DNA of 43,796 bases, from positions 1-43,796 of the IMG/VR virus record IMGVR_UViG_3300020727_000033. The stretch is one strand, 5' to 3'. This stretch comes from a virus (taxonomy: Duplodnaviria > Caudoviricetes). The notes beneath the pieces are model-generated. The model worked only from the letters and a program-made list of their open reading frames with translations. It was not told the origin of the DNA and did not search any database. Of this stretch, positions 15,701 to 43,129 are shown in pieces. Each line of letters begins with the position of its first letter. The stretch's first letter is position 1. A program made the position numbers and the translations under genes.

Positions 15701-15866
15701 CAAGAACTCGAAGGGTTTGATCAAACCTGTCAACCGATACGGCGGCTCCGTCGGCAGATGCTGATGTTCCGTCAATTCCCTTAATAACGCGGTCAAGCCC
15801 GGCAGCGACCTCTGCGCTACCGAACAACTTCATCATAAATTCTAGGTAATTAGTTTCTGATGCCAT
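12792..15866 (-). CDS. tail tape measure protein
   Basis: 1024 aa, Ala/Lys/Gly-rich and helical; directly after the chaperone genes. Confidence 0.9.
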   Translation of the reverse strand: MASETNYLEFMMKLFGSAEVAAGLDRVIKGIDGTSASADGAAVSVDRFDQTLRVLAGALDKDIIASDRAAKSNAGLSDSYKFVSLSADQSVASINSSTAAYERNATAAASASSGMRNLVGGSAATGLIKASKWIAGGALLTGYESIKKYMSFQQSVTQSITQAGVPLADQKAIMSGLLDISTKTGEKANDMAATFYRVASSLAGTHTPLKRMLEISTAIAKLNVLGNVPAGAQSENTARVVMSIYNANLKGTGRNLTKIIGTSSAIAGSADAYIKDVSSAFGNGLLAAAQQQGLSMADAGAIFAAYTKLGMKPASAGVYATRSITQLFSPTVQGEKGLQMLGINPFKIKEIQDKQGFPAVLQYLNKQLQGPLSPLPTYAKYKGSTGAAAAYKQLNTWFNGALSQTFQNQLGEKVTGAQFKAQLAADLKSGKGITPQEMDVVRNMMITRMFGGQRGSVQVAALLDNLPSILAAAGNIAKNTDPKKVNELTKIALTTPGQQFKIIEAKIAADFIKIGQTITPIFLKVANALASFFGGFTKFKYVIEVVGGYLGEVLLLGAALKAFRTGLKIFDFFKNTLNLKKLFSNVKTTEPIVAAGAEMQAAAKIQAEAAGVQFKAAEMLSMGRFSGAEGGGGLFLREEGFGTGRKPIGLPYAEQQSRVHAGAMMPGYMGQGVKNTVENTAKNELEKHTGFLAKIANSKLFNLGSSALSMLPGIGTAASIALPLLLPFAGSAFSFLGGLFGGGAPKPVNAATQTSLQKATAAAQKQIAKDQALLKKNPNNLNALTDLYSQQAIVDRNTGNLKGKQLANNFAYLVQSALPKAIRTKFGLVTTGGNQAELDKLTAQMKANPAFASYVKQIRPLVYGQLMGFAVNELATKNAALAQAGFENFVSNRNQRDSTALGYVTDKSKPLKARLQEGMQANLGIQQTMQTELKLSKTAGTAAVRKEYLDAYQNTKSNYETLHKDLIQLSKDNKGQITPKVISDLAKQIAAENKQIYTELGFSSTQFAQAVTAALAGTGHWKVG

Positions 15867-15875
15867 GTATTTAAA

Positions 15876-15911
15876 ACAAAAAAACCGCTACCCCCAAAGG
15901 GATAGCGGTTT
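15876..15911 (-). terminator. intrinsic terminator upstream of the tape measure gene
   Basis: AACCGCTATCCC-TTTG-GGGGTAGCGGTT followed by a T-run on the minus strand. Confidence 0.7.
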
Positions 15912-15945
15912 GTTGTTTGCCGCCTTCTATATTGGCGGAAGGCTG

Positions 15946-16173
15946 TTAGAAGATTTTCGCAAGAACCTTTGCGACTTCTAGACCAGTCAATTCCGCAAGA
16001 ACTTTTATTTCCTCTGATTTTTGTTCACTGCTTAATTTCATAGCCTTTTTCATCAAGGCAATTGATATCAAGTAATCTTCGTGGCCCTGAGTGATGACCT
16101 TGTAAGGGTCCATACCCAATATTGTTGCATACGCGCCCGCCTCTATGTACGGGTCGTCATCCAGGGCTTTTAA
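15946..16173 (-). CDS. -1 frameshift extension of the tail assembly chaperone (G-T type), 75 aa
   Basis: Open -1 frame LKALDDDPYIEAG...VLAKIF* starting at AGT-TTT-TAA; no clear RBS of its own. Confidence 0.75.
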   Translation of the reverse strand, partial: LKALDDDPYIEAGAYATILGMDPYKVITQGHEDYLISIALMKKAMKLSSEQKSEEIKVLAELTGLEVAKVLAKIF

Positions 16174-16694
16174 AAACTTTCGTCAGCTTCGTCACCGGCA
16201 ATACCACTCCACTTAAAGAGTTTGTTTGCGGTGTCAATTAGATCGCCTTCGGTAAGGTAAACACCGAGAACAACATCTGAAGCACGCTGAGCGTCAAGCC
16301 CAATTGCATCAGAAAGTTCTGTGTCAAACTTTGTCCAGGCACCCTTAGAGTCATTAACCCTAAGAGAGAGTTTATTTTCGGTGTTTCCATCAACAACTGC
16401 ATAAACACCAATGCATGCTTCAATGAGCATGTCTGCATTAGCGAGCAATGACCAGTCTTCTCCGCCGACCTTGCGACGACGTTCAATAGCCTTATTTAGC
16501 TTTACTGCTGATACTGGCTTAAATCGAACGTAAAGTTCTGGTTCGTCCCAACGAGGGACTTTAATGTCTGTATGCAGATCGTTTACAATCTGTGCACGAC
16601 GGTCACGCAAAGCGGCAAGTGGACTGTCTTCAGCCAACCCGCCGCTTTGCAATGAGTCATTTTCCAATTCGGTTTCTACTTTAAAGTCAACCAT
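16170..16694 (-). CDS. tail assembly chaperone
   Basis: Between tube and tape measure genes; start re-called at ATG 16694 behind GGAGG. Confidence 0.8.
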   Translation of the reverse strand: MVDFKVETELENDSLQSGGLAEDSPLAALRDRRAQIVNDLHTDIKVPRWDEPELYVRFKPVSAVKLNKAIERRRKVGGEDWSLLANADMLIEACIGVYAVVDGNTENKLSLRVNDSKGAWTKFDTELSDAIGLDAQRASDVVLGVYLTEGDLIDTANKLFKWSGIAGDEADESF

Positions 16695-16729
16695 GTGTTC
16701 CTCCAATGGTCTAGTCGTTTATTTAAAAA

Positions 16730-17206
16730 TTAGTTACTTACTGTTTCTACAGCAATGTCCACTTCGTACATTCTAGCAGCATTTGACGTTGAGTCAGTAC
16801 CGCCGTCCTTTACGTTAACAAGGCGACCTGAGTAGGTACGTGCAGCACCTGTCCAGTTGTTTCCTTCGTCGTCAAGTGGTTGAAGTGTAACAGTAACCAT
16901 AACACGTCCTGCCATGTTGTGCAAGTCAGCAAGAATAGCGTGGTCAACTTGGGTTTCGTAAACTTTGGTCAAAACAACGTCTGAGTAACTTGGGAGTGAA
17001 AGGTATGTAATTTCAGGTCCCATTCCACCTGGACGGTGTTTGTTCACAGCAGCGGTAACGTCTCCACCAGAAAACTTGTCAAATACAATTGATGAACCAG
17101 TATTCAGTGTAGTCAGCGTCATCCCTGTTGGAATGTTTCCACTGATCTGCAAGGTGGCAAGCCACTGTTGTTCAGAACCGTAATTGTGTTGAGTATAAAA
17201 AGCCAT
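16730..17206 (-). CDS. tail tube protein
   Basis: 158 aa after the sheath; FDKFSGG...RPGGMGPE and D..SN motifs; AAGGAG RBS. Confidence 0.8.
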   Translation of the reverse strand: MAFYTQHNYGSEQQWLATLQISGNIPTGMTLTTLNTGSSIVFDKFSGGDVTAAVNKHRPGGMGPEITYLSLPSYSDVVLTKVYETQVDHAILADLHNMAGRVMVTVTLQPLDDEGNNWTGAARTYSGRLVNVKDGGTDSTSNAARMYEVDIAVETVSN

Positions 17207-17231
17207 TTGATTTCTCCTTAGATTTATTTAA

Positions 17232-18767
17232 TTAAGCTGGAAGGGTAGCGTTGGAGAGGAATTTTGTTACGTTGATAGTAACGAACTCACCAAACGGCGA
17301 CATCTTTAGGTTTACTGCTGCATTGATTTGACCAGCCGCAATTGTTGCAGGTGTGTTTACCTGTGGTCCAACATTTACGTTGAACGATGCGTCTGCGGAT
17401 GATCCATAAAGGCTTCCGCGAACCCAGTATTGTTGGCAAACACCTGAAAGCGCTCCACCAAACTGACTGAAAAGGTGTCCCTTGCCATCAATTTCTTGGA
17501 ACAAGAATGCTTCACCGATACGGTCAAAGTCGTTAATGATTTGCATACGGAAACGACCGTTGTTGAGGTAAGTCCAGTTACCTGATGTGTCAAGTGAACG
17601 GTATCCGTAAACAGCAATAATTCCAGTGTTTGGAACAACGCGAATTACGTTGATACCTGCATTGTTAAGCAAAGTGCGGTCGCTTGCAGAGTATGTCTTT
17701 TGTACGCCGGTTGCGTAACCAAGTGAACCGTTTACGGTACCAGCAGCAGGAACGTTAGCGTCATACTTTGCATCATTTTGAGCCATGGTTGCACAAACAG
17801 CAGCAGATGGGGCAACGGTACGGTAGAAACCAGCGGTTGCGCCAGGAACCTGGAGCCAAGGTGTAAAGATTGCACAATATGATGTGTCGTTTCCAGATGA
17901 CTGGAGAACTGCAACGTCTGTAATTAAAGCAGAAGCAGCGTGTGATGGGTTTGCGTCAAGAATAGCCATGCGGTTATTCGCTGAAGCGTGTGCTGTAAGA
18001 GCTGCGTAAACAGCTTCTGTGTATGCACCTGGGTATGAAACTTGTCCAGGGCCGTAGGTTGCATCAAAAACAGCAAGGGCTGTTGCCACGTTGGTGTCAG
18101 AAGTAGCCGCGTCAGCTCCACTTGTAAGGTAGATTGAAGTTGTTGAGTTTGTTGTTGGAAGGGCTGACGATCCAGAAACAGTTGCAACTGTGCAAAGTGA
18201 TTGAAGAACTGGAAGTGAGTTAATCCACTGATTAAGTGATAATTCTGCTCCAGCAGCAGCAAACTTTGGTGATGCAGCAAGAACTACACCGTTGTAAACA
18301 ATGCTTGCAGCATATGTAGTTACTGTGTTAACAGTTGTGTTTGTAAAGTTAATTACAAGACCAGCCGCAGAAGCATTAGAACTATTTGCCCATGTACCAC
18401 CGCTGATTGCGGTGAAGGTGTTAGTACCAAGTGTTGCTGTTGCTACTGTTGTGCCTGTCGCTGCAACAAGAGTAGAAACGTAAGCTACGAGTCCGCCCTC
18501 TTTGAAGTAAACGTCAAGCGCGTCATAAAGTAGGGTGCTGTCAAGTGTGACAGAACCTGGTGTAACGGTGTAGCGTCCAGTTAGTGCTCCGCCAACGTAC
18601 TGACCAAAATAGGTAGTAAAGTCTGACATTGAGCTGATTGGAACGGCGACTCCGGCTGGCCCTGCGGCGTTACCGGTGACGAACCATTGACTGGTTGGTG
18701 CTGCACCCTGGGTGTTTGAAGCAGAGGCGGTTACGTTAACGTATACGCCGGGAGCTGAACTAGCCAT
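17232..18767 (-). CDS. contractile tail sheath protein
   Basis: APGVYV start; LNNAGINVIR, YGYRSL, W.YLN..R and F.EID..G sheath motifs. Confidence 0.9.
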   Translation of the reverse strand: MASSAPGVYVNVTASASNTQGAAPTSQWFVTGNAAGPAGVAVPISSMSDFTTYFGQYVGGALTGRYTVTPGSVTLDSTLLYDALDVYFKEGGLVAYVSTLVAATGTTVATATLGTNTFTAISGGTWANSSNASAAGLVINFTNTTVNTVTTYAASIVYNGVVLAASPKFAAAGAELSLNQWINSLPVLQSLCTVATVSGSSALPTTNSTTSIYLTSGADAATSDTNVATALAVFDATYGPGQVSYPGAYTEAVYAALTAHASANNRMAILDANPSHAASALITDVAVLQSSGNDTSYCAIFTPWLQVPGATAGFYRTVAPSAAVCATMAQNDAKYDANVPAAGTVNGSLGYATGVQKTYSASDRTLLNNAGINVIRVVPNTGIIAVYGYRSLDTSGNWTYLNNGRFRMQIINDFDRIGEAFLFQEIDGKGHLFSQFGGALSGVCQQYWVRGSLYGSSADASFNVNVGPQVNTPATIAAGQINAAVNLKMSPFGEFVTINVTKFLSNATLPA

Positions 18768-19029
18768 TTGCGTTCTCCTGTAGGATTAGCGTCTCAGTTT
18801 CCTGAGGACGTGGGTTTTTGTTTGGGTTGGGCTTTTTTTGCTCTTCCTTAATTTCAACATTTTTTAATTCTTGTTGAGTTTCTGGAACAACAGTCAAAAG
18901 ACCGTTTAAAATGTGTGCTTCTACGATTGAACCGTCTTCAACGGTGTACTCGTGTGCAGGCGACATGGATTGACCCTTGTCGTCAAAAATAACGTATCGT
19001 GATTGAACTATTACTTTCTTTTTGCTCAT
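18760..19029 (-). CDS. hypothetical virion-associated protein
   Basis: AAGGA RBS, overlaps both neighbours, usual small gene before the sheath. Confidence 0.7.
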   Translation of the reverse strand: MSKKKVIVQSRYVIFDDKGQSMSPAHEYTVEDGSIVEAHILNGLLTVVPETQQELKNVEIKEEQKKPNPNKNPRPQETETLILQENANG

Positions 19030-19694
19030 ATATTTTCCTTAGTAACATCAATGTTTGCTTCTTCAACCTCTTGTACTGGTTCTGGAGGCAAAACAGATGG
19101 TCCGGTTCTTGCACCTGTTGGGGCAAATTGTGGTGACGGAGGTCCTCCGTACATATTCATTGCATTTCCAACTGTAACGGCAAAACGAAGGTGAGCAATA
19201 CCCGTTGTGCGTCCACTTGAGTGTTCGCCTTCAGCATATTCTTCGCCTTCCCAAATGGTAGTTTGAGCAAAACCATTTAGGCCACGGTGTTGAATTATTG
19301 CAGCACGAACCGCTGCCGCATAGGCAGAAGTTAGTGCTTGTGTTTCTTGCCAATCTTTTGTACCGTACACGTAAACTAAAACTTCTACGCGCCAGTTTGT
19401 ACGAATGGCGTCTTGATAAATTCTCGGAACACCGATGGTATTAGGAACTTCAACAAGAATTGCGGCCGATGCATTTCTTGGTAAGGTTCTAAATTCCGGA
19501 CGGTGGCGATATTCATATGGCTCAAGAAGAACTTGACTACCTAGTTTACGGTTAATTTCCGCAATGTAAGTAGGAAGCCATTCTTGAAGCGTATTATAAA
19601 AAGCCTCTTGAACAGAGTGTCCGCTATAAAGGGGACCAAATATATTGTCGGTGTATGAAAGATTCCAATCAGTCCACCATTCTCGTTTTGACAT
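19026..19694 (-). CDS. tail terminator/neck protein
   Basis: 222 aa; position between neck and sheath genes. Confidence 0.6.
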   Translation of the reverse strand: MSKREWWTDWNLSYTDNIFGPLYSGHSVQEAFYNTLQEWLPTYIAEINRKLGSQVLLEPYEYRHRPEFRTLPRNASAAILVEVPNTIGVPRIYQDAIRTNWRVEVLVYVYGTKDWQETQALTSAYAAAVRAAIIQHRGLNGFAQTTIWEGEEYAEGEHSSGRTTGIAHLRFAVTVGNAMNMYGGPPSPQFAPTGARTGPSVLPPEPVQEVEEANIDVTKENI

Positions 19695-20641
19695 TATGGT
19701 TTACCAAATCCGTCTGCAATTCTTTGAGCACCAGTTACTTGATTTTCTCTTAAAGCAGAATTATAAAATGACATTTTTTCTCTGTTTAACTTTCCACCAG
19801 AAACTCTATTTATCAGTGAATCTGTTTGAGATGAATTTAATTTATTTGCTTTATTAAATTCTGATTGTACTCGTCTGGAAAGTTGTATATTCTCATAATG
19901 AGAAAGAGTTGAAAGACTTGAGTCTTTCATGTGAGCTAGTTCTGCTGCATTTCTGTCAACTGTTTTTTTGCCAGAAGCAGAAAGTTCTTTATTTCCGGTT
20001 CTGCTAATCCTTGATCTTACTGAAACTGCTTGCGAATCTCTTCTTAAAGCTTGTTCAACATAAGTAGATTTTTTTGCTTCAATTTCAGCAGAATTTGTTC
20101 TAGCAATTTTAGCAATCTTACTACTACCAATACCAATGTAACTTTGCATTATTTTCAAAGCTGCTAATTTAAATTCTGGTGTAATGGTAATAATTTCTCT
20201 AATAATTCCTGATTCATTATCTCCAGTTTGATGAAAATAACCATAGTCTTTATTACGAGAATAATTCTCTGGTGCACCATGTTTTCTTGGATCAATAGTA
20301 ATTGTTGCACCTTTTAAGGTGTTTACTATTGTTGGGGCAACAGCCGCTGCGTGAAGATAGCCAAAGTTAACAAGTGGGCGATCTCCGCCATAACCTTGTT
20401 TTGAATAAATTGTACTATCAGCTAATGGCTCCCATTGTTCAGGGATTCCAAATGATGGAGCAGCACCGTAGTTAAGAAAACGTTCTTCCTCCATAACTAT
20501 AAATAGTTCTTCAATTTGAGAAAGAGCGGGCAATGTGTTTTTTAAAGCAGCAGAATACATCTGAAGTTTTACCGCTACATTTTGTAAATTTTTAGCGTAG
20601 AAACCTTGAGGCGATCCACCACGCAAGTTCATCTGGCCCAT
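19694..20641 (-). CDS. virion morphogenesis/neck protein with basic C-terminal extension
   Basis: ERF......WEPLA.ST...K....PLV..G.L and YG.FHQTG motifs. Confidence 0.7.
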   Translation of the reverse strand: MGQMNLRGGSPQGFYAKNLQNVAVKLQMYSAALKNTLPALSQIEELFIVMEEERFLNYGAAPSFGIPEQWEPLADSTIYSKQGYGGDRPLVNFGYLHAAAVAPTIVNTLKGATITIDPRKHGAPENYSRNKDYGYFHQTGDNESGIIREIITITPEFKLAALKIMQSYIGIGSSKIAKIARTNSAEIEAKKSTYVEQALRRDSQAVSVRSRISRTGNKELSASGKKTVDRNAAELAHMKDSSLSTLSHYENIQLSRRVQSEFNKANKLNSSQTDSLINRVSGGKLNREKMSFYNSALRENQVTGAQRIADGFGKP

Positions 20642-32983: not shown

Positions 32984-33466
32984 ATGACTAATTACTATGC
33001 TCGAGAAACAACATTTAGCTCTAACAAAGATACATGGACAACGCCTAAGAAAACATTTAACGAATTAAATGATGAATTTAACTTTACGTTAGATGCCGCA
33101 GCACTTAAAGTATCTGCATTGTGTGACATGTGGTATGGACCAGATCATGATGACCCACTTATGCAAGACGCTTTTAGTCGTCTATGGTACGACGACGTAT
33201 CTAGCGTAGGTGGTACTACTGCATTTCTTAATCCACCATACGGTAAGACTATTAAACACTGGATGGCTAAAGCTGATAATGAATCTAGGGCCGGACTAAA
33301 AATAGTTTGTTTAGTTCCGTCGCGTACTGACACCTCTTGGTGGCATGATTCAATTATTCATCACGAAGTACGTTTTATACGAGGTCGTTTACACTTTGGA
33401 GGAGCAGATCGTGCACCGTTTCCTAGTGCAATTGTAATTATGAGACCTACAACCAGTCTTCAATAG
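32984..33466 (+). CDS. dam: phage DNA N6-adenine methyltransferase (Dam family)
   Basis: W.TP, FTLDAAA, NPPY, LVPSRTDT.WW, FIRGRL.F, APFPS motifs. Confidence 0.9.
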   Translation: MTNYYARETTFSSNKDTWTTPKKTFNELNDEFNFTLDAAALKVSALCDMWYGPDHDDPLMQDAFSRLWYDDVSSVGGTTAFLNPPYGKTIKHWMAKADNESRAGLKIVCLVPSRTDTSWWHDSIIHHEVRFIRGRLHFGGADRAPFPSAIVIMRPTTSLQ

Positions 33467-33720: not shown

Positions 33721-34122
33721 CTATAGCACATCGTAGCTAGTAGGTGTGATGCGTACTATAACGTTGCCTACTTTAGCACGTAGAGGCTTTGAATGGGTTT
33801 GAATCATCTCAAAAGCGTAGAATTCCTCGGTTGTTGGCGTAATTATTTTTTGTACGTACAAAATAGCGTTGTGTCCTAACCAGTTGAAGAAATCTTTTGT
33901 GTCAAAATCATCTTTAATTAGATATCCTTCAAAGTTGATTGTGTTGCCCTCGGATTCAATTAAATGCAGTGGTGTATCTGTTGAGTCGGTTTCAAAATAG
34001 CGATTGATCGCTCCGCGTAGGTTAGTACCTTTAAAATGCTCTGAGAGGGTGCTAGAAGGCGTTTTTCGCCCCTCCAATTGCTCTGCTAGGTCTTCCATAG
34101 CTTTATTAAGTTCTTCGCTCAT
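33721..34122 (-). CDS. hypothetical protein, probably leaderless (133 aa)
   Basis: ATG 34122 lies 7 nt after TTGACA-N17-TACTCT (34130-34158); no RBS. Confidence 0.7.
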   Translation of the reverse strand: MSEELNKAMEDLAEQLEGRKTPSSTLSEHFKGTNLRGAINRYFETDSTDTPLHLIESEGNTINFEGYLIKDDFDTKDFFNWLGHNAILYVQKIITPTTEEFYAFEMIQTHSKPLRAKVGNVIVRITPTSYDVL

Positions 34123-34394
34123 ACCGTCAAGAGTACCAGATATGGTACCTACTGTCAAGTTTTAACGTTTTTAAGAATACAAAATGTTGACACGTGTGTC
34201 CAAATTGCGTATTTCTACTGTTTGCCCATCTTTGTGTTGAACATATGTTCGGATATAAGAAGATAAAGTTTACGTGTGTGTGCACCCAAAATGATCCCCT
34301 GCAAGTCGGCTTCGTGTGGCTGATGGGGGTGGTCATGTGTTAAAGTGGATTTATCGAGGTGAACGAACGTTTCGCCCGATAGGGTAGGTACAGA

Positions 34395-34585: not shown

Positions 34586-34614
34586 CGAACACTTGTCAGA
34601 CTGACAAGTGTTCG
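34586..34614. repeat. 29-bp palindrome (14-bp arms)
   Basis: CGAACACTTGTCAG-A-CTGACAAGTGTTCG. Confidence 0.8.
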
Positions 34615-34734
34615 TCACTCGCCCAGGAAGCCTAACCCATGCCCAAGTAACGGCCGGTTAGACTTTCTGAGGGAGTAAAAATCCCGGCGCAAAAATTTTG
34701 CGACAAAAAATTGTAATCCAGTAAAGGGGATAAC

Positions 34735-35163: not shown

Positions 35164-35312
35164 TGACTTACGAATACGAAGTTAAAATTGAGGGTTACAT
35201 CGTCTTCGATGATGACGACCTACCAGAGGGCATGAGTCCGGCGCAGTACGCGGAAGCTTGCTACGTTGCGGGAAACATGCAGTACCAAGGACACGAAATA
35301 GAGGAGTTATAA
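35163..35312 (+). CDS. acidic 49-aa protein (MTYEYEVKIEG...)
   Basis: Hand-translated; coupled to neighbours. Confidence 0.6.
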   Translation: MTYEYEVKIEGYIVFDDDDLPEGMSPAQYAEACYVAGNMQYQGHEIEEL

Positions 35313-35314
35313 AA

Positions 35315-35479
35315 ATGGAAAACGATTTTACAGTTACGATTACTACCGGCAATGATGCCATGAAGACAAACCTAGACATCGCGGAGGCACTGGAGCGCGT
35401 AGCAGAGCGCCTACGTGGCGGAGCGTGGCAAGGTAAAATTAGAGACGTGAACGGAAACACGGTAGGCCAGTTTAGTTAA
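35315..35479 (+). CDS. small phage protein (54 aa)
   Basis: GAGGAG RBS; F...I.T.N.A...IA..L..VA......G.IRD.NGNTVG pattern. Confidence 0.7.
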   Translation: MENDFTVTITTGNDAMKTNLDIAEALERVAERLRGGAWQGKIRDVNGNTVGQFS

Positions 35480-35489
35480 GGCGTACCAG

Positions 35490-35527
35490 AGCAAAAGGCC
35501 CGGGGCATTAGTCCCGGGCCTTTTGCT
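35490..35527. terminator. CCCGGG-family bidirectional terminator H2
   Basis: AGCAAAAGGCCCGGGGC-ATTA-GTCCCGGGCCTTTTGCT. Confidence 0.8.
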
Positions 35528-35608
35528 TTCCCGGATCGTAGCCGGATCGCGAGCTCGCGCCTAAAAGATCTGGAACAAAAACTTTTGACAAAAAAAAGTA
35601 AAATGAGC

Positions 35609-35638
35609 TTGACATAGTTAGATCGCTTAGTGTACACT
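35609..35638 (+). promoter_or_regulatory. early-type promoter TTGACA-N18-TACACT
   Basis: Near-consensus hexamers, A-tracts upstream, GGAAGGA RBS downstream. Confidence 0.65.
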
Positions 35639-35678
35639 TTTAACAGCTGAGCAAGTAGCAAGGCTGGAAGGATTTATC

Positions 35679-35948
35679 ATGGCTTACACAACTAACCTAC
35701 AAGCAGTAGAAAAGATAGCGCAGCTACGACCTTTTGAGGGTAACAGCATGAGCGCTAAGTACGAGGGCAACGAATACAGAATTTACAGCTATTCCACGCT
35801 AATGGCAGTAATTGAGGGCAGAGAGATTACTTACCTAGATAACCAGTTCTACTCTAGAACTACAAGCAAGCAACAAGCGCTTATTGCTCGAGGCCTTACA
35901 GCTGGCGCCTACCCTGAAGCAGTTCACGCTATTGTAAAGGAGCGTTAA
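35679..35948 (+). CDS. hypothetical early protein (89 aa)
   Basis: GGAAGGA RBS; YSYST...YSRTTSKQQ pattern. Confidence 0.8.
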   Translation: MAYTTNLQAVEKIAQLRPFEGNSMSAKYEGNEYRIYSYSTLMAVIEGREITYLDNQFYSRTTSKQQALIARGLTAGAYPEAVHAIVKER

Positions 35949-35950
35949 GA

Positions 35951-36091
35951 ATGAGCGACCAAGAGCAGACGGAGCGCATCCAAGAGAATTACGAATACAT
36001 GATGAGCGAATGGGAGAAGACCGGATTAACGCCGCTACTCTCAGAATGGGAGGATGTGTTCGAGGATCGCGATCCTTTTGAATTCATTTAG
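35951..36091 (+). CDS. acidic 46-aa protein (MSDQEQTE...DPFEFI)
   Basis: AAAGGAG RBS; hand-translated. Confidence 0.65.
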   Translation: MSDQEQTERIQENYEYMMSEWEKTGLTPLLSEWEDVFEDRDPFEFI

Positions 36092-36113
36092 CTTTTAACT
36101 TAATTTTTAAGCG

Positions 36114-36136
36114 TCCCGGGACATTGCGTCCCGGGA
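36114..36136. terminator. CCCGGG-family hairpin H3
   Basis: TCCCGGGAC-ATTGC-GTCCCGGGA then TTTTGCTTTT. Confidence 0.75.
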
Positions 36137-36265
36137 TTTTGCTTTTATTGGTGTCTATTTTGCGATTTTGAGCTTGCCAGATCTGGCCTAGGTGTTGGTA
36201 TTGCTTTTAAAAAAAAGTGGCGAGAATGCAAACGACAAAAAACAAAATAAAAACACAAAATGAAC

Positions 36266-36294
36266 TTGACAAGCTTGCGTTAAGTGTGTATTGT
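36266..36294 (+). promoter_or_regulatory. promoter TTGACA-N17-TATTGT
   Basis: Near-consensus hexamers with TG extension; no ORF directly after. Confidence 0.55.
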
Positions 36295-36404
36295 AGGTAT
36301 TGGTGGAATAGGCGCCCAATTTTTTTAAGCTTTACGCTAGCTTGTAGCTAAGGATCGAGCTCGCAGCTCGCAGCTCGCAGCTCTAAAAGTTTTTAAAAAT
36401 TGAC

Positions 36405-36433
36405 TTGACAAGCTGCGCTTAGTGTGTTAGCTT
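36405..36433 (+). promoter_or_regulatory. promoter TTGACA-N17-TAGCTT
   Basis: Resembles 36266-36294; precedes an AAAGGAG RBS. Confidence 0.6.
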
Positions 36434-36459
36434 GTTGTCATCTAGTAAAGGAGATAAAA

Positions 36460-36603
36460 ATGATTACATGTTCAAGCTGCAAGGCAAGCGTAGACAAGCT
36501 AGAGGTATTCCCTGGCGAGCTATGCCTTAAGTGTTACGAGCTCGAGCAGCTAGGCAAGCCATTGCCAACAGCTAGCGAGCTTAGAGCTATGTGGGGAATG
36601 TAG
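36460..36603 (+). CDS. 47-aa zinc-finger-like protein (MITCSSC...LEVFPGELCLKC...LRAMWGM)
   Basis: AAAGGAG RBS; CxxC...CxxC; contains 8 AGCT sites. Confidence 0.75.
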   Translation: MITCSSCKASVDKLEVFPGELCLKCYELEQLGKPLPTASELRAMWGM

Positions 36604-36811
36604 CTCGCAGCTTATCAGATCTGAGCTAGCTCGCAGCTGCGGATCGCAGCTCGGGCAGAGCTCGGGCGCGAGCTCGCGGGCGCGGGCGGGCGGCCGGGGC
36701 GCCGTCCCAGGATCGAAGCGCTGAAGCGCTAGTAACAAAAATTTCTGACAAAAAAACGTATTCTAACTAGTAACAAAAATTTCTGACAAAAAAACGTATT
36801 CCGATTTTAAG

Positions 36812-36827
36812 GTTACTGGTCAGTAAC
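36812..36827. promoter_or_regulatory. GTTAC-N6-GTAAC operator-like palindrome
   Basis: GTTACTGGTCAGTAAC; related copies at 42894-42915 and 42969-42986. Confidence 0.6.
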
Positions 36828-36893
36828 TAATTCATTGAAAGTTTAAACGGATCGCAGCTTGATCCGCAGCTATAAAAGTTTTTGATTTGTGAC

Positions 36894-36923
36894 TTGACTT
36901 AGTTCAGTTGCATGTGTTAAGTT
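36894..36923 (+). promoter_or_regulatory. promoter TTGACT-N18-TAAGTT
   Basis: Upstream flank CGCAGCT.TAAAAGTTTTT duplicates that of the 36405 promoter. Confidence 0.55.
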
Positions 36924-36966
36924 TGAATTGTTGAAGGCAAGGTGCTGGAGGCGGAAGGATAAAATC

Positions 36967-37299
36967 ATGCTTACAATTACAAAAAAACAAAAAGAAGAAA
37001 TTGCAAAGTTGCAAGAAGTGTTGGAAGTTGCGAAGACGTTACCTGAAGAAGCACGACTAAACATTGAAAAGCAAGTGATGGACTTAGTCGAAAAGATGGC
37101 ACGGTTGCAAGTTATAAAGCACCAACTGGCATTGCTTAATTCAGGTCTAACAGTAGGTCAGACATTCACAACACAGAGTTCAGGTGTTGTCGGTATTGTT
37201 GAAGAAGTAGTTGAAAACGCTACGGGCTCATTCAGGGTTCGCCTTAACGTGAACGGCGTAGAGCGTTGGACTACATTCAACAAGGAGTTGGCACTATGA
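36967..37299 (+). CDS. coiled-coil plus SH3-like domain protein (110 aa)
   Basis: GGAAGGA RBS before ATG 36967; C-terminal domain paralogous to 34735-34968. Confidence 0.8.
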   Translation: MLTITKKQKEEIAKLQEVLEVAKTLPEEARLNIEKQVMDLVEKMARLQVIKHQLALLNSGLTVGQTFTTQSSGVVGIVEEVVENATGSFRVRLNVNGVERWTTFNKELAL

Positions 37300-37541
37300 G
37301 AAAGGGAAAACTTATTGAAAGAAGTTTTGTGTGGTCAGTAGGTGCGCTTGCTTTTATGAGCGTATTCATTTACACGCAAAGCCTTATACCATTCAACAAC
37401 TGTGACGTGATGACACAATGGATAGATAGCATTATCCCTAGCCTTTTTGCTTTTGTCGCAGGTATCATAGTAGGCTATTACATAGTTTTAGTAGCCAACA
37501 GTAATCGCAACTATCGTAGACGCATTAGGCGTTATCGGTAG
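37296..37541 (+). CDS. two-TM membrane protein with Arg-rich tail
   Basis: AAGGAG RBS, ATGA overlap, two hydrophobic segments. Confidence 0.7.
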   Translation: MRKGKLIERSFVWSVGALAFMSVFIYTQSLIPFNNCDVMTQWIDSIIPSLFAFVAGIIVGYYIVLVANSNRNYRRRIRRYR

Positions 37542-37644
37542 TTCATAATTGGTTTGCGTTGGGAAACGCCACCATGATAGGCACGGTAGCCTTTACTCTA
37601 CCGTGCCTATCCTTCCTCTCAATAAATGAGAGACCCCCGGACTT

Positions 37645-37678
37645 AACCCCTGCCAGATCGGCGGGGGTTTTGTCTTTA
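37645..37678 (+). terminator. intrinsic terminator
   Basis: AACCCCTGCC-AGATC-GGCGGGGGTT followed by TTGTCTTT. Confidence 0.6.
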
Positions 37679-37709
37679 TTAGTGCAGCTTAAAAAAAGAT
37701 CCTTGATGT

Positions 37710-37738
37710 TTGCATGATGTACTTAATTGTGTTATTGT
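37710..37738 (+). promoter_or_regulatory. promoter TTGCAT-N17-TATTGT
   Basis: TG extension; leader hairpin and GGAAGGA RBS follow. Confidence 0.55.
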
Positions 37739-37780
37739 ATTGATGTAGTCGCATGGTGCGACTCGGAAGGATAAAAAATC

Positions 37781-38161
37781 ATGAAAGCATTAACACTTAA
37801 CACAGATGGACACAAAGCCATCGTTGAGTTTGACAACTCTAACGCTTATGACACTTTGCGTGAAGCAGTTGGTGGACTTATTGAAGCAGTTGACTTACAC
37901 ACGCTAGGCGTGACCATGTGGGTTAACGAAGAAGGAAAGATTGAACAGTTAGAGCAGAACGCCATCGGCACATCGCTATACGTTGATGAGTTTGGCATGT
38001 ATGACTTTATCAGTGGCAACATTATCTTCACACACGTTGACACAGACGAAGAAGGCAACACGCTCGGACTTACTGACGAGCAGATTGCAACGCTCATGGA
38101 TTACACACGCACGATGTACGTTGTTGCAACGGCCTCTCACTCATCGCTAGGCGGTGAGTGA
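37781..38161 (+). CDS. DUF3846-like phage protein
   Basis: L.EAVGG.IEAV, MWVNEEGK, N..GT, I.GN..F motifs. Confidence 0.8.
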   Translation: MKALTLNTDGHKAIVEFDNSNAYDTLREAVGGLIEAVDLHTLGVTMWVNEEGKIEQLEQNAIGTSLYVDEFGMYDFISGNIIFTHVDTDEEGNTLGLTDEQIATLMDYTRTMYVVATASHSSLGGE

Positions 38162-38550
38162 TGGGGCTCGACCAATACGCATACGCAGTAATGCCACACA
38201 AAGAGAACACAGATCTTTCTTACTATTGGAACGATGAAACAGATCCTGAAGGAGTTCGAGCTGTCATGTTTCACTCATGGCGCAAGCACGCAAACTTGCA
38301 AGGATACATGGAAGAACTTTATGTGAGCAAAGGTGGAGACAAAGATTTCAACTGTGTACCAGTACGCTTAACGTTTCACGACTTGCAGGAGTTAAAAGAA
38401 GCAGTTGTGAACTCTCGACTACCTCAGACCACTGGTTTCTTCTTTGGTCAGAGTGATGAGGAGCACGACACAGAGACGTTAGAGTTCATTGAGAAGGCTA
38501 TTAAGGCAATTACTCAAGACATGGAAATCTACTATTCGAGTTGGTGGTAA
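38161..38550 (+). CDS. conserved phage protein (MGLDQY...WRKH family)
   Basis: MGLDQY, WRKH..LQG.M, LP.T.GFFFG, YYSSWW. Confidence 0.8.
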   Translation: MGLDQYAYAVMPHKENTDLSYYWNDETDPEGVRAVMFHSWRKHANLQGYMEELYVSKGGDKDFNCVPVRLTFHDLQELKEAVVNSRLPQTTGFFFGQSDEEHDTETLEFIEKAIKAITQDMEIYYSSWW

Positions 38551-38552
38551 TC

Positions 38553-38828
38553 ATGGAAGCAATAGAAATTGTTTGGTCAACGCCCGCACCTTCTTCAACT
38601 GGGAAGAAGGGAGAAGGGGGGCCATGGAAACCTAAGCGCGAAGAAATAATTGAAGGTGAACTACGAAAGAACAAAGGTGAGTGGGTTCTGCTTAAAGAAG
38701 GCGTTGATAGCAGAAGCGTACCTAAAAGATTTCAAGGTGCAGAGTTTCAACGTGCTTATCGCAATTACTACGAAGATGGAAAACTATTAAGACGTATCTA
38801 TGTTCGTTACGTTGGGAAGGAAGAATAA
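38553..38828 (+). CDS. hypothetical protein (91 aa)
   Basis: IVW..P.P, L..N.GEW, IYVRYVG pattern; operonic. Confidence 0.75.
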   Translation: MEAIEIVWSTPAPSSTGKKGEGGPWKPKREEIIEGELRKNKGEWVLLKEGVDSRSVPKRFQGAEFQRAYRNYYEDGKLLRRIYVRYVGKEE

Positions 38829-38977
38829 TGAAACGCAACTTTAAAGCACAACAAGGAACAACAAACATTAAGGGTTCAATGTGTTCAAACTGTAATCACA
38901 TTACGCCGTTAGGTGATGCTCGCACAGTGCGACGCGATAAAGAAAGACACAATTTAAAATGTAAGGGAATGAAGTAG
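38828..38977 (+). CDS. 49-aa basic protein with CxxC...H...C
   Basis: GGAAGGA RBS; TAATG coupling; hand-translated. Confidence 0.6.
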   Translation: MKRNFKAQQGTTNIKGSMCSNCNHITPLGDARTVRRDKERHNLKCKGMK

Positions 38978-38997
38978 CCAAGTAACAACGACAAGCA

Positions 38998-39027
38998 AAA
39001 GCCCCGGGCAATTACGCCCGGGGCTTT
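38998..39027. terminator. CCCGGG-family bidirectional terminator H4
   Basis: AAAGCCCCGGGC-AATTAC-GCCCGGGGCTTT between convergent genes. Confidence 0.8.
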
Positions 39028-39044
39028 CTTGTTTCTACAGTAAT

Positions 39045-39236
39045 CTAATAAGCTTCAAAGTATTTAGCAGTTGTGGCTAGCAAGTGGTCGTAATCACCTG
39101 ACGTTGCTTCTGCATAATATTCATCTTCTAGTTTTGATCGATCATTATCTTTTAATGCGTTCATGGCGCGTCCAAGAATGCTGAATGCGTTGCCATCAAG
39201 ACCAACCAACTGTAATTTGATTCCTGTAATGCTCAT
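39045..39236 (-). CDS. conserved small phage protein (63 aa)
   Basis: LVG.DGNAF.ILGR...AL....EATSGDYDHLL; GGAAGGA RBS; TTGCGT-N17-TATTAT upstream (39278-39306). Confidence 0.8.
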   Translation of the reverse strand: MSITGIKLQLVGLDGNAFSILGRAMNALKDNDRSKLEDEYYAEATSGDYDHLLATTAKYFEAY

Positions 39237-39374
39237 TATGGATCCTTCCGTTATCTGGCAGTGTTGCCATTAATTAAATAATACACTAACCAAGCTTGAC
39301 ACGCAAGTACCCTAACTAGGTGCTATAATAAATGCGTGGGGGCAAATCGCCCACTACAGAAGGGAATGAAAATT

Positions 39375-39719
39375 ATGGGAGACCGTGGACAAGTTAGATT
39401 AGTGAGTGAAGGTTCACCAGACATTTACCTTTACACGCATTGGGGAGCAACTGAACTACCTGAAGTGGTTGCCAATGCGCTTGCTCGTGGCAAGGGTCGT
39501 TGGGGTGATGACGAATACCTAAACCGCATTATCTTTACCGAGATGATTAAAGATGACGTGATGTCTGAAACTGGTTTTGGTATCGGCACTGCTGAACACG
39601 GAGACGTGTGGCGTGTTGTTACTGTTAATCACGACAGCAAGACGGTCGAAGTGACACAGTTTGAAAAAACTTGGTCGTTTGATGACTATGTAACAGCGTT
39701 TGCGAGCGCAACTGTTTAA
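39375..39719 (+). CDS. hypothetical early protein (114 aa)
   Basis: MGDR...IYLYTHWGA...RW.D..YL.RI pattern; TGcTATAAT extended -10 at 39321-39329. Confidence 0.8.
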   Translation: MGDRGQVRLVSEGSPDIYLYTHWGATELPEVVANALARGKGRWGDDEYLNRIIFTEMIKDDVMSETGFGIGTAEHGDVWRVVTVNHDSKTVEVTQFEKTWSFDDYVTAFASATV

Positions 39720-39730
39720 GAAGTAACAAG

Positions 39731-39760
39731 GAAGCCCCGGGCGTAATTGCCCGGGGCTTC
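39731..39760. terminator. CCCGGG-family hairpin H5 (inverted copy of H4)
   Basis: GAAGCCCCGGGC-GTAATT-GCCCGGGGCTTC. Confidence 0.75.
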
Positions 39761-39881
39761 TGCATTTCTTAATACCTTCATGCTTGGTAGCCACCGCTAC
39801 CGCTGTTGCAACAGCTGCACCTACAATTATTGTATCACATAGTTAGGTCATTTTGTGATCCTAATTTAAGAAGTTTGTTTA

Positions 39882-40076
39882 TTAAGCTGCACGCTTGTTG
39901 ATCTTGTTAAAGCGGTTATCTATACGCTCAAGGTAAAGAGGGAAGTCAATGCCAGGAGTCAGCCTTGCTCGCCTATTGGCGGTAGTTTCTTTGCTAGCTG
40001 CAACGGTGCATGGACGACAGCGACAACCGTGATTAGTGTACTTGCTTCGAGTGCCGTGCTTGATTTTTGAAACCAT
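39882..40076 (-). CDS. small zinc-binding/DNA-binding protein
   Basis: HGT...Y...GCRC..C motif common in actinobacteriophage proteins; GAAAGGA RBS. Confidence 0.75.
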   Translation of the reverse strand: MVSKIKHGTRSKYTNHGCRCRPCTVAASKETTANRRARLTPGIDFPLYLERIDNRFNKINKRAA

Positions 40077-40186
40077 GGTGATCCTTTCAAAGCTCGGCGG
40101 TGATGCCGATGTATTTAGTATAGCACTTAATGAGTTTTAATGTTGCATTTAGTTGTGCCAGTGTAAGCTGATTGATTTAACAAGCT

Positions 40187-40221
40187 AAAGAGTCCCGGGG
40201 CATTGCGCTCCGGGGCTCTTT
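40187..40221. terminator. CCCGGG-family hairpin H6
   Basis: AAAGAGTCCCGGGGC-ATTGC-GCTCCGGGGCTCTTT. Confidence 0.7.
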
Positions 40222-40531
40222 CGTTGATCCGTTTGAGCTCCGGGGATATCGTAGAGCTAGTGGCCTAGTGATCTTAAAAAAAAGATCGTAGAGCCGGCCG
40301 GTCGTGCCGAGTGGTAACAAAATTTTCGTCAAAAAAATGTATTTTGATCTATCTATGAACTAGTAACAAAATTCTACGACAAAAAAACGTATTTAAGTTT
40401 TACGATCCTGTAATTGCCTATTAACAAAAATTTCTGTCAAAAAAATGTATTCAAGAAACGACAAACTCCGGAGCTTGTGGCTCCGGAGCAGTGAGAAGGA
40501 ATTCACTTTTAATTGTCTGACCTTGTGGGGG

Positions 40532-41947
40532 CTATGCCTTGCCACCCTTTGAACGTGGCACATAATTGCCAACGTTGCCACGAACATCTGAACGTGCTGA
40601 CTTGCCAAGTGCCAACGCCTTGATACCGGCGTTAACATTCGGTGCAACAATGATGTTGTGCTTGATGACCATCTTGGCGCACGCAACATCTAATTCTTTG
40701 TGCCAATCGTCAGTTGAACTTGTTACTTGACCATCGCAAATCCAAATCAAAGGTTCGCTACCACGTCGCTTGCTGATAGCAAACTCTAATGCCGGGCCAT
40801 CTACACCGTTGCCACCATTCTTGGTGCAACGTGTAATGTCCTTCGCACGCTTGCCACGATTAGCAATAATCCAAGCGTTAGGTCGGTTAGCGTGCTTTCT
40901 ACTGTGCGAGTACGCAATAACCAACGCACCCGGAGCAAGTTCCAAGAACTTGTCAACGTCATCGCTAGTCAAACTCATTGAACCTGAACAGTCAATTACT
41001 ACGACACCACCATTGTTGCGTGGCTTCTGACTAAAGATTCGCTTGTGTGGGTCAGTCAACAAACGTGATGGATACAGAACACGCTTGCCAGTTGACGCTG
41101 AACGCTTGCGACGTGCTAGGTGACCCTTGACTTGTTGGTCGCATAACAAAGTGTGGTCAAGCTTCAACGGTGCAAAACCATTGTTGCCACCAACGTTGTA
41201 GTCAATACCCGATGAACCCTTGACTGATTCAAAATCATTGTCATCGCCTTCGTACTTCTGATACGAACTAACAACTTCTGCTATCTCTCTCGTGTAACGC
41301 AAGAAACCACGACCAAGTTCGATACCTTCACCGTCAGTTGCGATGTCGGTGTTGCCAAGATTCTGAACGTGCGTGCGCTTCGTAATCTTTAGTAGCGCAA
41401 GTTCTTGTTGACGTAATTGAACAGCAAGTTCTTTGTCAACTGAACGAACACCAACGATGTAGTCACGAAACGCCTTAGTGCCAACAAGTCCTGCACCAAA
41501 CGCCATTAGTTCGTTGTAGGCGTTGACCGACTTCTGCGCTTCCTTCGCACTACGCTTGCCTGATTCCTTTTCGCTACCATCTTTGAGTAGATTCAAGTCG
41601 TAACCAAGACGACCAACAATAGTGTTAACTCGGTGCTCCTCTGCGACCTTCGCTACTCGGTCACTGAACCCATAAGCTTCGCACCACTTGGCAAACATCT
41701 CCATGTTGTTAGGTGAGACACGAACGTGAACCGCTTCGTGCGCACGTACTACTCGTGCAACGTCATCGTTGATAAGTGGAATACGCAACACGTTGTCTTG
41801 GAAGTTCGTGTATGCGTCGCCACGTGAAGTTGAACCTTCGTCAACTGTCCAACGTGTAACTTCTGTGCCATCGTCACGTAGTGCAGTGATGACTTCGGGA
41901 AACGCAACGACTTGCTCCCGACGCTTCTGTGTGTGTTGGGTCGTCAT
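40532..41947 (-). CDS. HExxH metallopeptidase-like plus von Willebrand A domain protein
   Basis: HEAVH...EEHRVN; MIDAS VVVIDCSGSM; GGN and ICDG motifs; coupled to the AAA gene. Confidence 0.8.
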   Translation of the reverse strand: MTTQHTQKRREQVVAFPEVITALRDDGTEVTRWTVDEGSTSRGDAYTNFQDNVLRIPLINDDVARVVRAHEAVHVRVSPNNMEMFAKWCEAYGFSDRVAKVAEEHRVNTIVGRLGYDLNLLKDGSEKESGKRSAKEAQKSVNAYNELMAFGAGLVGTKAFRDYIVGVRSVDKELAVQLRQQELALLKITKRTHVQNLGNTDIATDGEGIELGRGFLRYTREIAEVVSSYQKYEGDDNDFESVKGSSGIDYNVGGNNGFAPLKLDHTLLCDQQVKGHLARRKRSASTGKRVLYPSRLLTDPHKRIFSQKPRNNGGVVVIDCSGSMSLTSDDVDKFLELAPGALVIAYSHSRKHANRPNAWIIANRGKRAKDITRCTKNGGNGVDGPALEFAISKRRGSEPLIWICDGQVTSSTDDWHKELDVACAKMVIKHNIIVAPNVNAGIKALALGKSARSDVRGNVGNYVPRSKGGKA

Positions 41948-42705
41948 TATGACAACGACCCGACACGTACAGCGTCAATAATTGCTTCTGCCTTCTGCGC
42001 ACCAAACGCAAGAACGCTTGCACGCTCCATTGGCATTGACTTAAGCAACGTGTTGTACGCATAGAACGCACGCAACGAAACACGACGCTCCGGTTCGCTA
42101 CTGATAACAGCGTTAGCAACAAGTCGCAATTCACTTGGTAGTGACAACAACGCACTTGGGTGCGGAGCGTTAATCTCAATCGCAACTGGGAAACGGTCAC
42201 GCAACGCCATTGGCAAGTCGTCAGGGTGCTCAATGTTGCTAGTCATAACTGCACTGAAACCTTGAAGTGGTGTGAACACTTCGTTAGTTTCAGGGTGTGC
42301 AAACGATGAACTGTCAGTACTGTCCAAGAAGTTAAGCAACTCACCAAACACGTCACCACTTGCCTTGTCAACTTCGTCAACGACCAAACGACCACCGACC
42401 TGTCCGTTACCCTTCCATGCACGCAACGCTGAACCTTCCATGAACTTGAAACCGTCAGCGTCGGGCATGAACGCACCCGATACTTGTGCAGTTGTCATGT
42501 CCTCGGTGCAGATAAGGCGAAACGAACCACCGTCACCAACACCAAGTGTTAGTCCACCGTAAGTCTTGCCAGTACCGGGAGCACCAAACAAGATAACTCG
42601 GTCAACGCCTGCATTGATAACATCTTTAAAATCCTGCCAACACTTAGGTAGAACTACTGATTCCTGTACTGCAACTACTGGTACTACTGGGTTAATGCCT
42701 TCCAT
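41947..42705 (-). CDS. MoxR/CbbQ-type AAA+ ATPase
   Basis: Walker A GAPGTGKT, Walker B LVVDEVD, TSN, LPMALRDRF; GGAAGGA RBS before ATG 42705. Confidence 0.9.
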   Translation of the reverse strand: MEGINPVVPVVAVQESVVLPKCWQDFKDVINAGVDRVILFGAPGTGKTYGGLTLGVGDGGSFRLICTEDMTTAQVSGAFMPDADGFKFMEGSALRAWKGNGQVGGRLVVDEVDKASGDVFGELLNFLDSTDSSSFAHPETNEVFTPLQGFSAVMTSNIEHPDDLPMALRDRFPVAIEINAPHPSALLSLPSELRLVANAVISSEPERRVSLRAFYAYNTLLKSMPMERASVLAFGAQKAEAIIDAVRVGSLS

Positions 42706-42754
42706 GATTAGTCCTTCCAACTAATACCGGTTACTTGTGCAACTCGGTACACTA

Positions 42755-42784
42755 ATTATACACACAATGTTGAACACAATGCAA
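42755..42784 (-). promoter_or_regulatory. promoter TTGCAT-N18-TATAAT for the AAA/vWA operon
   Basis: Consensus -10 with TGTG extension. Confidence 0.6.
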
Positions 42785-42847
42785 GTACCTTTTCAAAAAA
42801 TTATTGCAAACTTGGAGCAAGCTTGTATGGTGTTGGATAGCTATGCG

Positions 42848-42881
42848 TTCGATCCGTTCGATCCTTTTCGATCCGTTCGAT
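42848..42881. repeat. TTCGATCC short tandem repeat
   Basis: TTCGATCCG TTCGATCCTT TTCGATCCG TTCGAT. Confidence 0.75.
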
Positions 42882-43061
42882 AGATCAATAGAGTTAGTTA
42901 CCGGTGAGTAACTAAAACTGATGCGGCGTGAAGCGGATCGGTGATCCGGCCGCAACTGCGGCGGAGCAAGTTACTGGCCAGTAACTAACATTACCCAGAT
43001 CAAGCTTGGCCGCGGGCCGCGGCTGGTAGCAAAAATTTCGTCAAAAAAACGTATTTGGTTA

Positions 43062-43090
43062 TTGACACGGTTAGTGTTATCTGTTAGTGT
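43062..43090 (+). promoter_or_regulatory. promoter TTGACA-N17-TAGTGT
   Basis: Directly after an A-tract repeat copy; AAGGAG RBS downstream. Confidence 0.6.
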
Positions 43091-43129
43091 TCTGGGAGAA
43101 GGTAGTAACCAACTAATAAAAGGAGCATT

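Follow-up and report, generated by a model that had tools for sequence, protein, structure and literature searches.

The 43,796-nt stretch analyzed here in full (hereafter, the window; Duplodnaviria, Caudoviricetes; IMG/VR record IMGVR_UViG_3300020727_000033, positions 1 to 43,796) contains a block of small early phage genes, starting at ~34.3 kb, in which the intergenic spacers are packed with two four-base palindromes, AGCT and GATC. The spacers contain 63 such sites in 2758 nt (23 per kb) vs. 23 in 6305 nt (4 per kb) of the early genes. The same pattern recurs in three more genomes of the clade that shares this early module, and most of the other relatives examined have erased both words. 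This unusual clade-wide architecture is real, and the mechanism behind it is unproven. The clusters are likely to be recognized by two restriction-modification systems of the host, and would probably serve as bait in expendable early spacers, a reading to which we assign a probability of roughly 0.4.

Site clusters in the early spacers of the window

The 43.8 kb of the window represent part of the genome of a tailed phage, with genes for sheath, tube, capsid, portal and terminase on the left. Two tRNAs are present, and an Rfam scan gave nothing besides these. The early cassettes mostly consist of a TTGAC-type promoter, a small open reading frame (ORF) and a hairpin with a CCCGGG stem; the hairpin family (D3) and the promoter family (D9) recur in the spacers, and the order of the cassettes varies among relatives.

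The original prediction, made by eye from the letters alone, reported 25 AGCT in 36328-36674, 7 GATC in 42851-43001 and 5 GATC in 40226-40407, and all three counts are exact. The AAA/vWA genes are nearly site-free (two AGCT, no GATC), as had been claimed, and the smaller palindrome runs are located where they had been placed. The proposed mixture of palindromes has to be narrowed, however: AGCT and GATC are enriched in the window spacers, but CTAG, GGCC, CGCG and TCGA are not (z = 0.9, 0.5, -0.6 and -0.2, respectively). In the ten spacers, which were delimited by hand, GATC occurs 28 times vs. 5.3 in dinucleotide shuffles, ranking first among the 136 canonical 4-mers, and AGCT ranks third (35 vs. 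14.0). The word in between, CCGG (26 vs. 7.4), is located inside terminator-like stems in 14 of the 26 cases, and the enrichment signal is carried by AGCT and GATC only. The strongest local cluster of any of the 136 words in the window is that of AGCT at 36272-36671, with 26 occurrences in 400 nt vs. 1.6 expected (Poisson p ~1e-22).

The enrichment persists when duplicates are collapsed: 31 of the 35 AGCT and 27 of the 28 GATC occurrences have distinct 10-mer contexts, so that the recurring unit is a short palindrome with free flanks. Tandem duplication as the cause is ruled out by these nearly all-distinct flanks; a 7-nt unit in the AGCT cluster at 36328-36382 does vary in copy number, two sequencing runs (X10 and X19) being one unit short. 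An assembly artefact is excluded as well: a contig from an independent run spans 35300-36758 with one mismatch, and the clusters are shared by two diverged strains, L149 and L154 (both ~92% identical to the window and not independent of each other).

Eight of the 23 early-gene sites fall within the 47-codon ORF at 36460-36603. Codon resampling yields 1.46 AGCT for this ORF, and none of 20000 simulations reaches eight. The homologs found for this ORF are all near-identical to it. The relevant features of the early block and its border are as follows.

32984..33466, + strand: Dam-family adenine methyltransferase gene (PF05869, E 1e-20)
33721..34122, - strand: boundary gene, present in 4/4 AGCT/GATC-type and 0/6 CGCG-type records (blastp clustering)
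34239..34250: GAAC-N4-GTTC box, left boundary of the early block; same box at the corresponding junction in nine other records
34692..34717, + strand: first copy of the polar A-tract repeat, not preceded by sites
35480..35678, + strand: spacer with 3 AGCT and 4 GATC; terminator-like hairpin 35497-35520, site cluster 35531-35571, polar repeat 35577-35602, promoter-like sequence 35609-35638
36092..36459, + strand: spacer with 11 AGCT and 2 GATC; hairpin 36113-36137, promoter-like sequence 36266-36294, AGCT cluster 36328-36382
36460..36603, + strand: ORF of 47 aa with a CxxC...CxxC pattern; 8 AGCT, mostly by synonymous codon choice
36604..36966, + strand: spacer with 9 AGCT and 5 GATC; in and around it, the densest cluster 36601-36732, polar repeats 36737-36762 and 36775-36800, dyad 36812-36827
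37542..37780, + strand: spacer with 1 AGCT and 2 GATC; hairpin 37645-37669
39375..39719, + strand: early gene (phrog_31860), present in 4/4 AGCT/GATC-type and 0/6 CGCG-type records
40077..40531, + strand: spacer with 6 AGCT and 6 GATC; hairpin 40190-40217, site cluster 40226-40302, polar repeats 40318-40343, 40368-40393 and 40426-40451
40532..42705, - strand: AAA ATPase gene (PF07728) and partner gene; 2 AGCT, 0 GATC
42706..43129, + strand: spacer with 3 AGCT and 7 GATC; GATC cluster 42851-42886, dyads 42897-42912 and 42970-42985, polar repeat 43030-43055

Relatives with AGCT- and GATC-rich spacers

In the tree of the AAA and vWA-like genes, the window and the relatives G001, G002 and G006 comprise one side of a branch with 96/97 support, G006 being a long branch. 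The AGCT/GATC-type records examined do not include a complete genome. In the early spacers of the relatives, delimited by ORF calls made in this analysis, GATC is enriched in all three (18 vs. 5.1 in G001, 24 vs. 7.6 in G002 and 59 vs. 18.7 in G006) and AGCT in G001 (29 vs. 12.3) and G006 (47 vs. 24.3). The spacer order is clearest in G006, with 106 early-spacer sites in total: a hairpin is followed by an AGCT-rich and then a GATC-rich string, a GTTAC-N6-GTAAC dyad, the A-tract repeat and a promoter. The dyad (in the window, at 36812-36827, 42897-42912 and 42970-42985) was found in every AGCT/GATC-type record scanned and in none of G004, G005 and G013, and is a candidate operator.

The early genes of G006 are almost devoid of both words (AGCT, 3 vs. 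46 expected; GATC, 1 vs. 31; 4 vs. 77 together) and are also purged of GGCC, CATG and CGCG, whereas its late genes contain 57 AGCT vs. 77 expected and 47 GATC vs. 50. Family-wide, early genes are poor in ATAT, TATA and GGCC and, depending on the lineage, in CATG, TGCA and ACGT; those of the window are depleted of ATAT (1 vs. 13), CGCG (7 vs. 24) and GATC (9 vs. 16). This depletion of palindromes in early compared to late genes is strong in G006 and G013, and weaker in the window. The early blocks of the AGCT/GATC clade show no excess of CGCG, which is lacking there.

Loss of both words and accumulation of CGCG in other relatives

We identified 80 capsid loci, of which 65 reach 6 kb; after six distant ones (~53% capsid identity) were left out, 59 loci remained, some of them near-copies. 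Neither AGCT nor GATC is present in 41 of these 59 loci of at least 6 kb (581 kb in all). Among the complete genomes, of ~78 kb each, G005 contains no AGCT and three GATC, and G013 contains neither word. Thus, both words are avoided by phages of the same family, as expected of type II targets. On a quick capsid tree, their retention requires at least six changes.

The motif type is swapped among relatives, AGCT/GATC vs. CGCG, a possibility that the original prediction had raised. The early spacers of the purged genomes that were scored are rich in CGCG (69 vs. 16.5 in G004, 154 vs. 73 in G005, 85 vs. 37 in G013, 101 vs. 32 in L011 and 56 vs. 20 in G003), and much of this signal comes from a dyad, ATCGCG-N2/4-CGCGAT, located approximately at the -35 position. 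The first early gene is also loaded with CGCG in G005 (36 vs. 8), G013 (26 vs. 7) and G008 (16 vs. 6), with no such loading in G003, L011 and G012. In G008, CGCG promoters are combined with early genes that are poor in both AGCT and GATC and late genes that are near normal.

Several additional features of these genomes were observed. In G005, a genome that lacks AGCT, the first early gene is immediately followed by ~20 head-to-tail 8-nt units with CGCG (L108:10640-10830). An ArdC/PolyVal gene is present in four CGCG-type records, namely, G003 (L112:14080-14952), G004, G005 and G013, and was not seen in the AGCT/GATC-type records compared. G008 contains a gene with a weak ArdA-like match, below the Pfam cut-off.

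A repeat oriented along the genome axis

A 26-nt A-tract repeat is present in eight copies in the window. A profile search found 40 copies in five records, all 40 pointing inward from the GAAC-N4-GTTC boundary and none on the opposite strand; leave-one-out scans gave 7 inward and 0 reversed copies in one case and 6 and 0 in the other, with no match in late DNA. A related repeat points inward in G003 (15 copies) and G004 (13 copies, with the orientation of this record deduced from gene order), and none is reversed although the early genes there run toward the boundary. In L011, where the genes run inward, three weaker inward matches were detected. The module is oriented by the genome axis, not by transcription. 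As to the direction of the genes as such, early cassettes are transcribed toward the boundary in G003 (9238-20435) and G004 (1-10500) and away from it in G005 and L011, with a partly similar gene order.

The site clusters keep to one side of this repeat: for 25 clusters in four genomes, there are 128 AGCT or GATC sites in the 150 nt before the repeat vs. 22 in the 150 nt after it, and CGCG likewise lies ahead of the repeat in G003 and G004. The side is held even at 40226-40451, where the three repeats at 40318-40451 face the vWA-like gene at the end that carries its terminator (40465-40489, - strand). Because the next gene ends rather than starts there, the suggestion that the clusters are methylation switches beside promoters is weak. 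A bias of a KOPS-like (FtsK-orienting polar sequence) word, GGGNAGGG, was considered and rejected given too few occurrences in mixed orientation. A 29-nt near-perfect palindrome, conserved in L149, is located at 34586-34614, ahead of the first polar repeat.

Conservation and turnover of the sites

In close strains, spacer sites of the window are retained more often than other 4-mers: 52 of 61 in L149 (vs. a fraction of 0.66; p 0.002) and 32 of 35 in L154 (vs. 0.77; p 0.04). At the distance of G001, none of the four alignable spacer sites is kept, and neither is any of eight early-gene sites, against a background of 0.67 (p 0.0002). At this depth, it is the density of the sites that is conserved rather than their positions. 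Within limits, this turnover points to selection.

A genome-wide mutational push is unlikely because late non-coding DNA shows no excess of AGCT and GATC (9 vs. 16 and 8 vs. 11, respectively, in the window; 15 vs. 14 and 9 vs. 10 in G006) and the words that are neighbors of these two through T:G repair, AGTT/AACT and GATT/AATC, are not consistently depleted. A signature of Vsr-type T:G repair was not seen in these neighbor-word counts.

Possible roles of the site clusters

Type II enzymes with four-base targets read a bare 4-mer. Given that the conserved unit in the spacers is such a bare 4-mer with free flanks, we propose a four-base type II target for each word, AGCT being the AluI site and GATC the MboI/Sau3AI site. 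The avoidance of palindromes by phages has been ascribed mainly to type II systems (PMC6286503), and restriction-site-free leading DNA followed by tolerant later DNA has been described in T5-like phages (PMC10644984) and in the T7-like Autographiviridae (PMC12455610). In the present phages, this rule of first entry is seemingly obeyed inside the early genes and inverted between them, for words that most relatives have erased.

The bait hypothesis can be extended, tentatively and with somewhat greater reserve, to a cis-acting anti-restriction device made of DNA only, in which target clusters lie between self-contained cassettes, with a polar repeat behind each cluster as a cap for the cassette that follows; the answer of sister lineages to this problem would be to erase the two words throughout the genome and to stack CGCG at the same positions. 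Under this scheme, enzymes specific for AGCT and for GATC would be present in the host, and the early block would be the first part of the genome to reach the cell interior. A cut in a spacer, or an enzyme bound to it, would leave every promoter-gene-terminator unit intact, and a protein attached to the polar repeat just inward of the cluster would protect the cassette that follows. Meanwhile, the bait sites would occupy or spend the host enzymes, so that expression of the early genes could proceed and their products could safeguard the late genes, which do contain sites. A putative role of the clusters as decoys or programmed break points, as originally proposed, is consistent with site-poor genes vs. 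site-rich spacers.

Multiple observations weigh against bait. A site in the first-injected DNA makes T5-like phages sensitive (PMC10644984), so that bait requires tolerance of cuts in leading DNA, for example, through a long terminal repeat. The loaded coding stretches, namely, ORF 36460, the L149 copy of gene 39375, which contains five AGCT, and the first gene of G005, fit poorly with cutting. AGCT is not enriched in the early spacers of G002 (17 vs. 13.9), where GATC alone is raised. The early genes of the window are only weakly AGCT-poor (19 vs. 23, eight of these being within a single ORF), and AGCT is also scarce in the late genes of the window (70 vs. 153). Clusters are not required for tolerance given that G008 keeps near-normal numbers of late sites without a spacer excess (AGCT, 2 vs. 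7; GATC, 19 vs. 19). In close strains, early-gene sites are kept equally well (19/22 in L149 and 14/14 in L154), and the sequence after the polar repeat is often a promoter or a gene, which lowers its site count in any case. The closest cultured relatives by terminase are Arthrobacter phages (34-38% identity). Some of these have circularly permuted genomes, and permutation would make any fixed leading end indistinct. Neither a protective gene nor a host enzyme was identified.

We consider it rather unlikely that the clusters instead make up a methyl-mark platform, where sites methylated in the previous host would cooperate with the GTTAC-N6-GTAAC dyad and the polar repeat to attract or halt either a protein that reads methylation or a nuclease that translocates along the DNA. 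Most genes would be kept free of the sites because transcription would be obstructed by a protein bound there, and the accumulation of sites by synonymous codons in ORF 36460 and in the first genes of G005, G013 and G008 suits a mark better than a cut. An island of methyltransferase genes adjoins the early block, P1 requires Dam-methylated GATC at pac (PMC12707154), and CGCG, the swap partner, is methylated across metagenome-assembled genomes of marine Acidimicrobiia (PMC8919816), and the WhiB genes of the phages point to an actinobacterial host. However, in PMC6329791, freshwater Acidimicrobiia and hgcI bins are without a methylated motif, and methylation of AGCT together with GATC is reported for Thaumarchaeota, not for actinobacteria. 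Moreover, such a platform alone does not explain why most relatives lack both words throughout their genomes. No phage methyltransferase family was found to follow the trait among the records, most of which are fragments in which not every ORF was scanned: a Dam-like gene (52% identical) is also present in G005, with merely 3 GATC in 78.9 kb, and the G002 fragment shows just a C5 enzyme.

A by-product ratchet, in which methylation- or repair-biased mutation or cut-and-repair scars raise the number of sites in recombining spacers, slippage and gene conversion spread them, and selection merely removes those in genes, appears unlikely. A methylation-biased ratchet has been proposed for the cyanobacterial HIP1 palindrome (PMC4390886), and the variable copy number of the 7-nt unit, the non-homologous positions of the spacer sites in G001 (0/4 alignable) and the variable cassette order all agree with such a process. 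It does not account for the lack of an excess in the late non-coding DNA of the window and G006 or for the inconsistent depletion of AGTT/AACT and GATT/AATC, and it has to treat 63-106 early-spacer sites as harmless while gene sites are purged.

The possibility that the words simply belong to longer promoter or operator sequences recognized by a regulator of the phage is quite improbable for the AGCT/GATC clade, where the spacing is irregular and the flanks are mostly distinct not only in the window but also in G001 (29/29 AGCT and 15/18 GATC), G002 (17/17 and 23/24) and G006 (36/47 and 52/59); furthermore, the cluster at 40226-40451 is not followed by an inward promoter. The elements that do resemble operator parts are the dyad near -35 that supplies much of the signal in the CGCG clade, AGCT adjacent to TTGAC in several window promoters, and partial strings common to the G006 spacers. 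Finally, an explanation by DNA that forms hairpins or cruciforms, or by faulty assembly, is hardly credible: although short palindromes adjoin GC-rich hairpins and one of seven stretches, which contains the dyad, is more stably folded than shuffled versions of it (z -2.3), the other six fold as their shuffles do (z -0.03 to -1.2), and the clusters are present in independent contigs and diverged strains.

According to PMC12707154, no phage product that directly inhibits a simple type II system has been found so far; bait built into the genome, if true, would for this reason be a new kind of counter-defence. Our searches of the open-access literature found no paper on decoy or clustered restriction sites in phage DNA. 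Even if a methyl mark or a ratchet turns out to be responsible, the split between AGCT/GATC and CGCG is a sequence-only marker of host modification systems in an abundant family of uncultured phages. The genome-polar repeat calls for a separate explanation.

Comparison with known systems

Similarly to the first-step-transfer (FST) region of T5-like phages and the leading DNA of Autographiviridae, the early block is purged of many palindromic 4-mers, unlike the late genes, and consists of small genes of unknown function with their own promoters. In contrast to those phages, which become sensitive through a site in the leading DNA (PMC10644984, PMC12455610), there is no site-free leading region, and from 63 (window) to 106 (G006) sites are amassed in the early spacers.

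Repeated long fixed words upstream of small genes are known in actinobacteriophages as the start-associated sequences (SAS) and extended SAS (ESAS) of cluster K and as stoperators. The dyad of the CGCG clade near -35 resembles these elements, whereas the flanks in the AGCT/GATC clusters are free and the orientation of the polar repeat is independent of that of the genes.

Local GATC clusters, targets of Dam, are also found in oriC and oriR. In P1 pac, too, the local GATC clusters are non-coding and an adenine methyltransferase gene is located nearby (PMC12707154). Whereas P1 pac and oriC each involve one locus and a known protein that reads it, the phages analyzed here have two words with free flanks in many spacers, and the Dam-family gene is also present in the GATC-poor G005. 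The HIP1 palindrome and the alternate HIPs of cyanobacteria are similar in that an over-represented palindrome is tied to methyltransferase targets and switches between lineages (PMC4390886). These are 5-8-mers spread genome-wide at ~1 per kb (PMC4390886), in contrast to the 4-mers confined to early spacers at ~20 per kb, whose counts in late spacers and late genes are no higher than expected.

An architectural parallel involves the promoter early stem-loop (PeSL) cassettes of T4-like phages, in which repeated terminator-promoter spacers surround small variable genes in varying order (PMC4122927). Variable genes flanked by a repeated terminator and early promoter are found here as well. No restriction-site piles are named in the abstract on PeSL (PMC4122927), and the repeat described here consists of an A-tract word with a fixed polarity along the genome, in a presumably actinobacterial myophage unrelated to T4. 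By analogy, the architecture appears to act like a restriction-proofed array of early cassettes with PeSL-like spacers.

Host, neighboring genes and additional features

The host is predicted to be an actinobacterium because WhiB, RecA, ERF and YqaJ genes are present in relatives and distant capsid relatives are found in Streptomyces and Kitasatospora. In named genomes, the capsid relatives belong to Streptomyces, Kitasatospora and Streptosporangiaceae elements (47-54% identity), and a complete Kitasatospora plasmid carries one at 50% (L139). A RecA comparison with 401 Actinomycetota genomes gave at most 61% identity and resolved no host. In 20 stretches from high-scoring actinobacterial genomes, the observed/expected ratio is 0.48-1.53 for AGCT and 0.67-1.02 for GATC, so there is no purge. 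Most of the runs containing the stretch are freshwater metagenomes, with no RNA dataset among those listed. Pattern scans for further family members added none.

The GAAC-N4-GTTC box that delimits the early block is also located at the boundary in G001, G002, G003, G005, G006, G012, G013, L011 and L149 and recurs within the early spacers of G006, G013, G012 and G003. These boxes, which we take to be SOS/LexA-like, suggest damage-inducible control. For the boundary gene (33721..34122), the structure model was unusable (predicted local distance difference test (pLDDT) score of 45) and no function was obtained. The early gene at 39375..39719, also present in L020 and L021, yielded a confident model (pLDDT 95.8); there was no PDB match at E<=0.001, its viral matches are uncharacterized or unnamed, and no function was obtained. 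The partner gene of the AAA ATPase, labeled vWA by the original prediction, has no Pfam match.

The content of the methyltransferase island varies between close relatives. In G001 (L106:6306-11484), four methyltransferases (two N6/N4, one C5 and one Dam-family) and a 2OG-Fe(II) oxygenase are encoded beside the early block. Strain-specific G-rich tandem runs straight after the boundary (L004:15870-16000 and L003:8020-8090, both on the - strand) are possible quadruplex-forming or terminus-related DNA. In the window, two inverted 47-nt hairpin elements (38990-39036 and 39722-39768) surround two divergent genes and could be an inversion substrate. Finally, a glycine-rich gene and a tail-fibre-like gene in the left part of the window (682-1461 and 2488-3702) lack both AGCT and GATC and are possibly recent imports from purged lineages.

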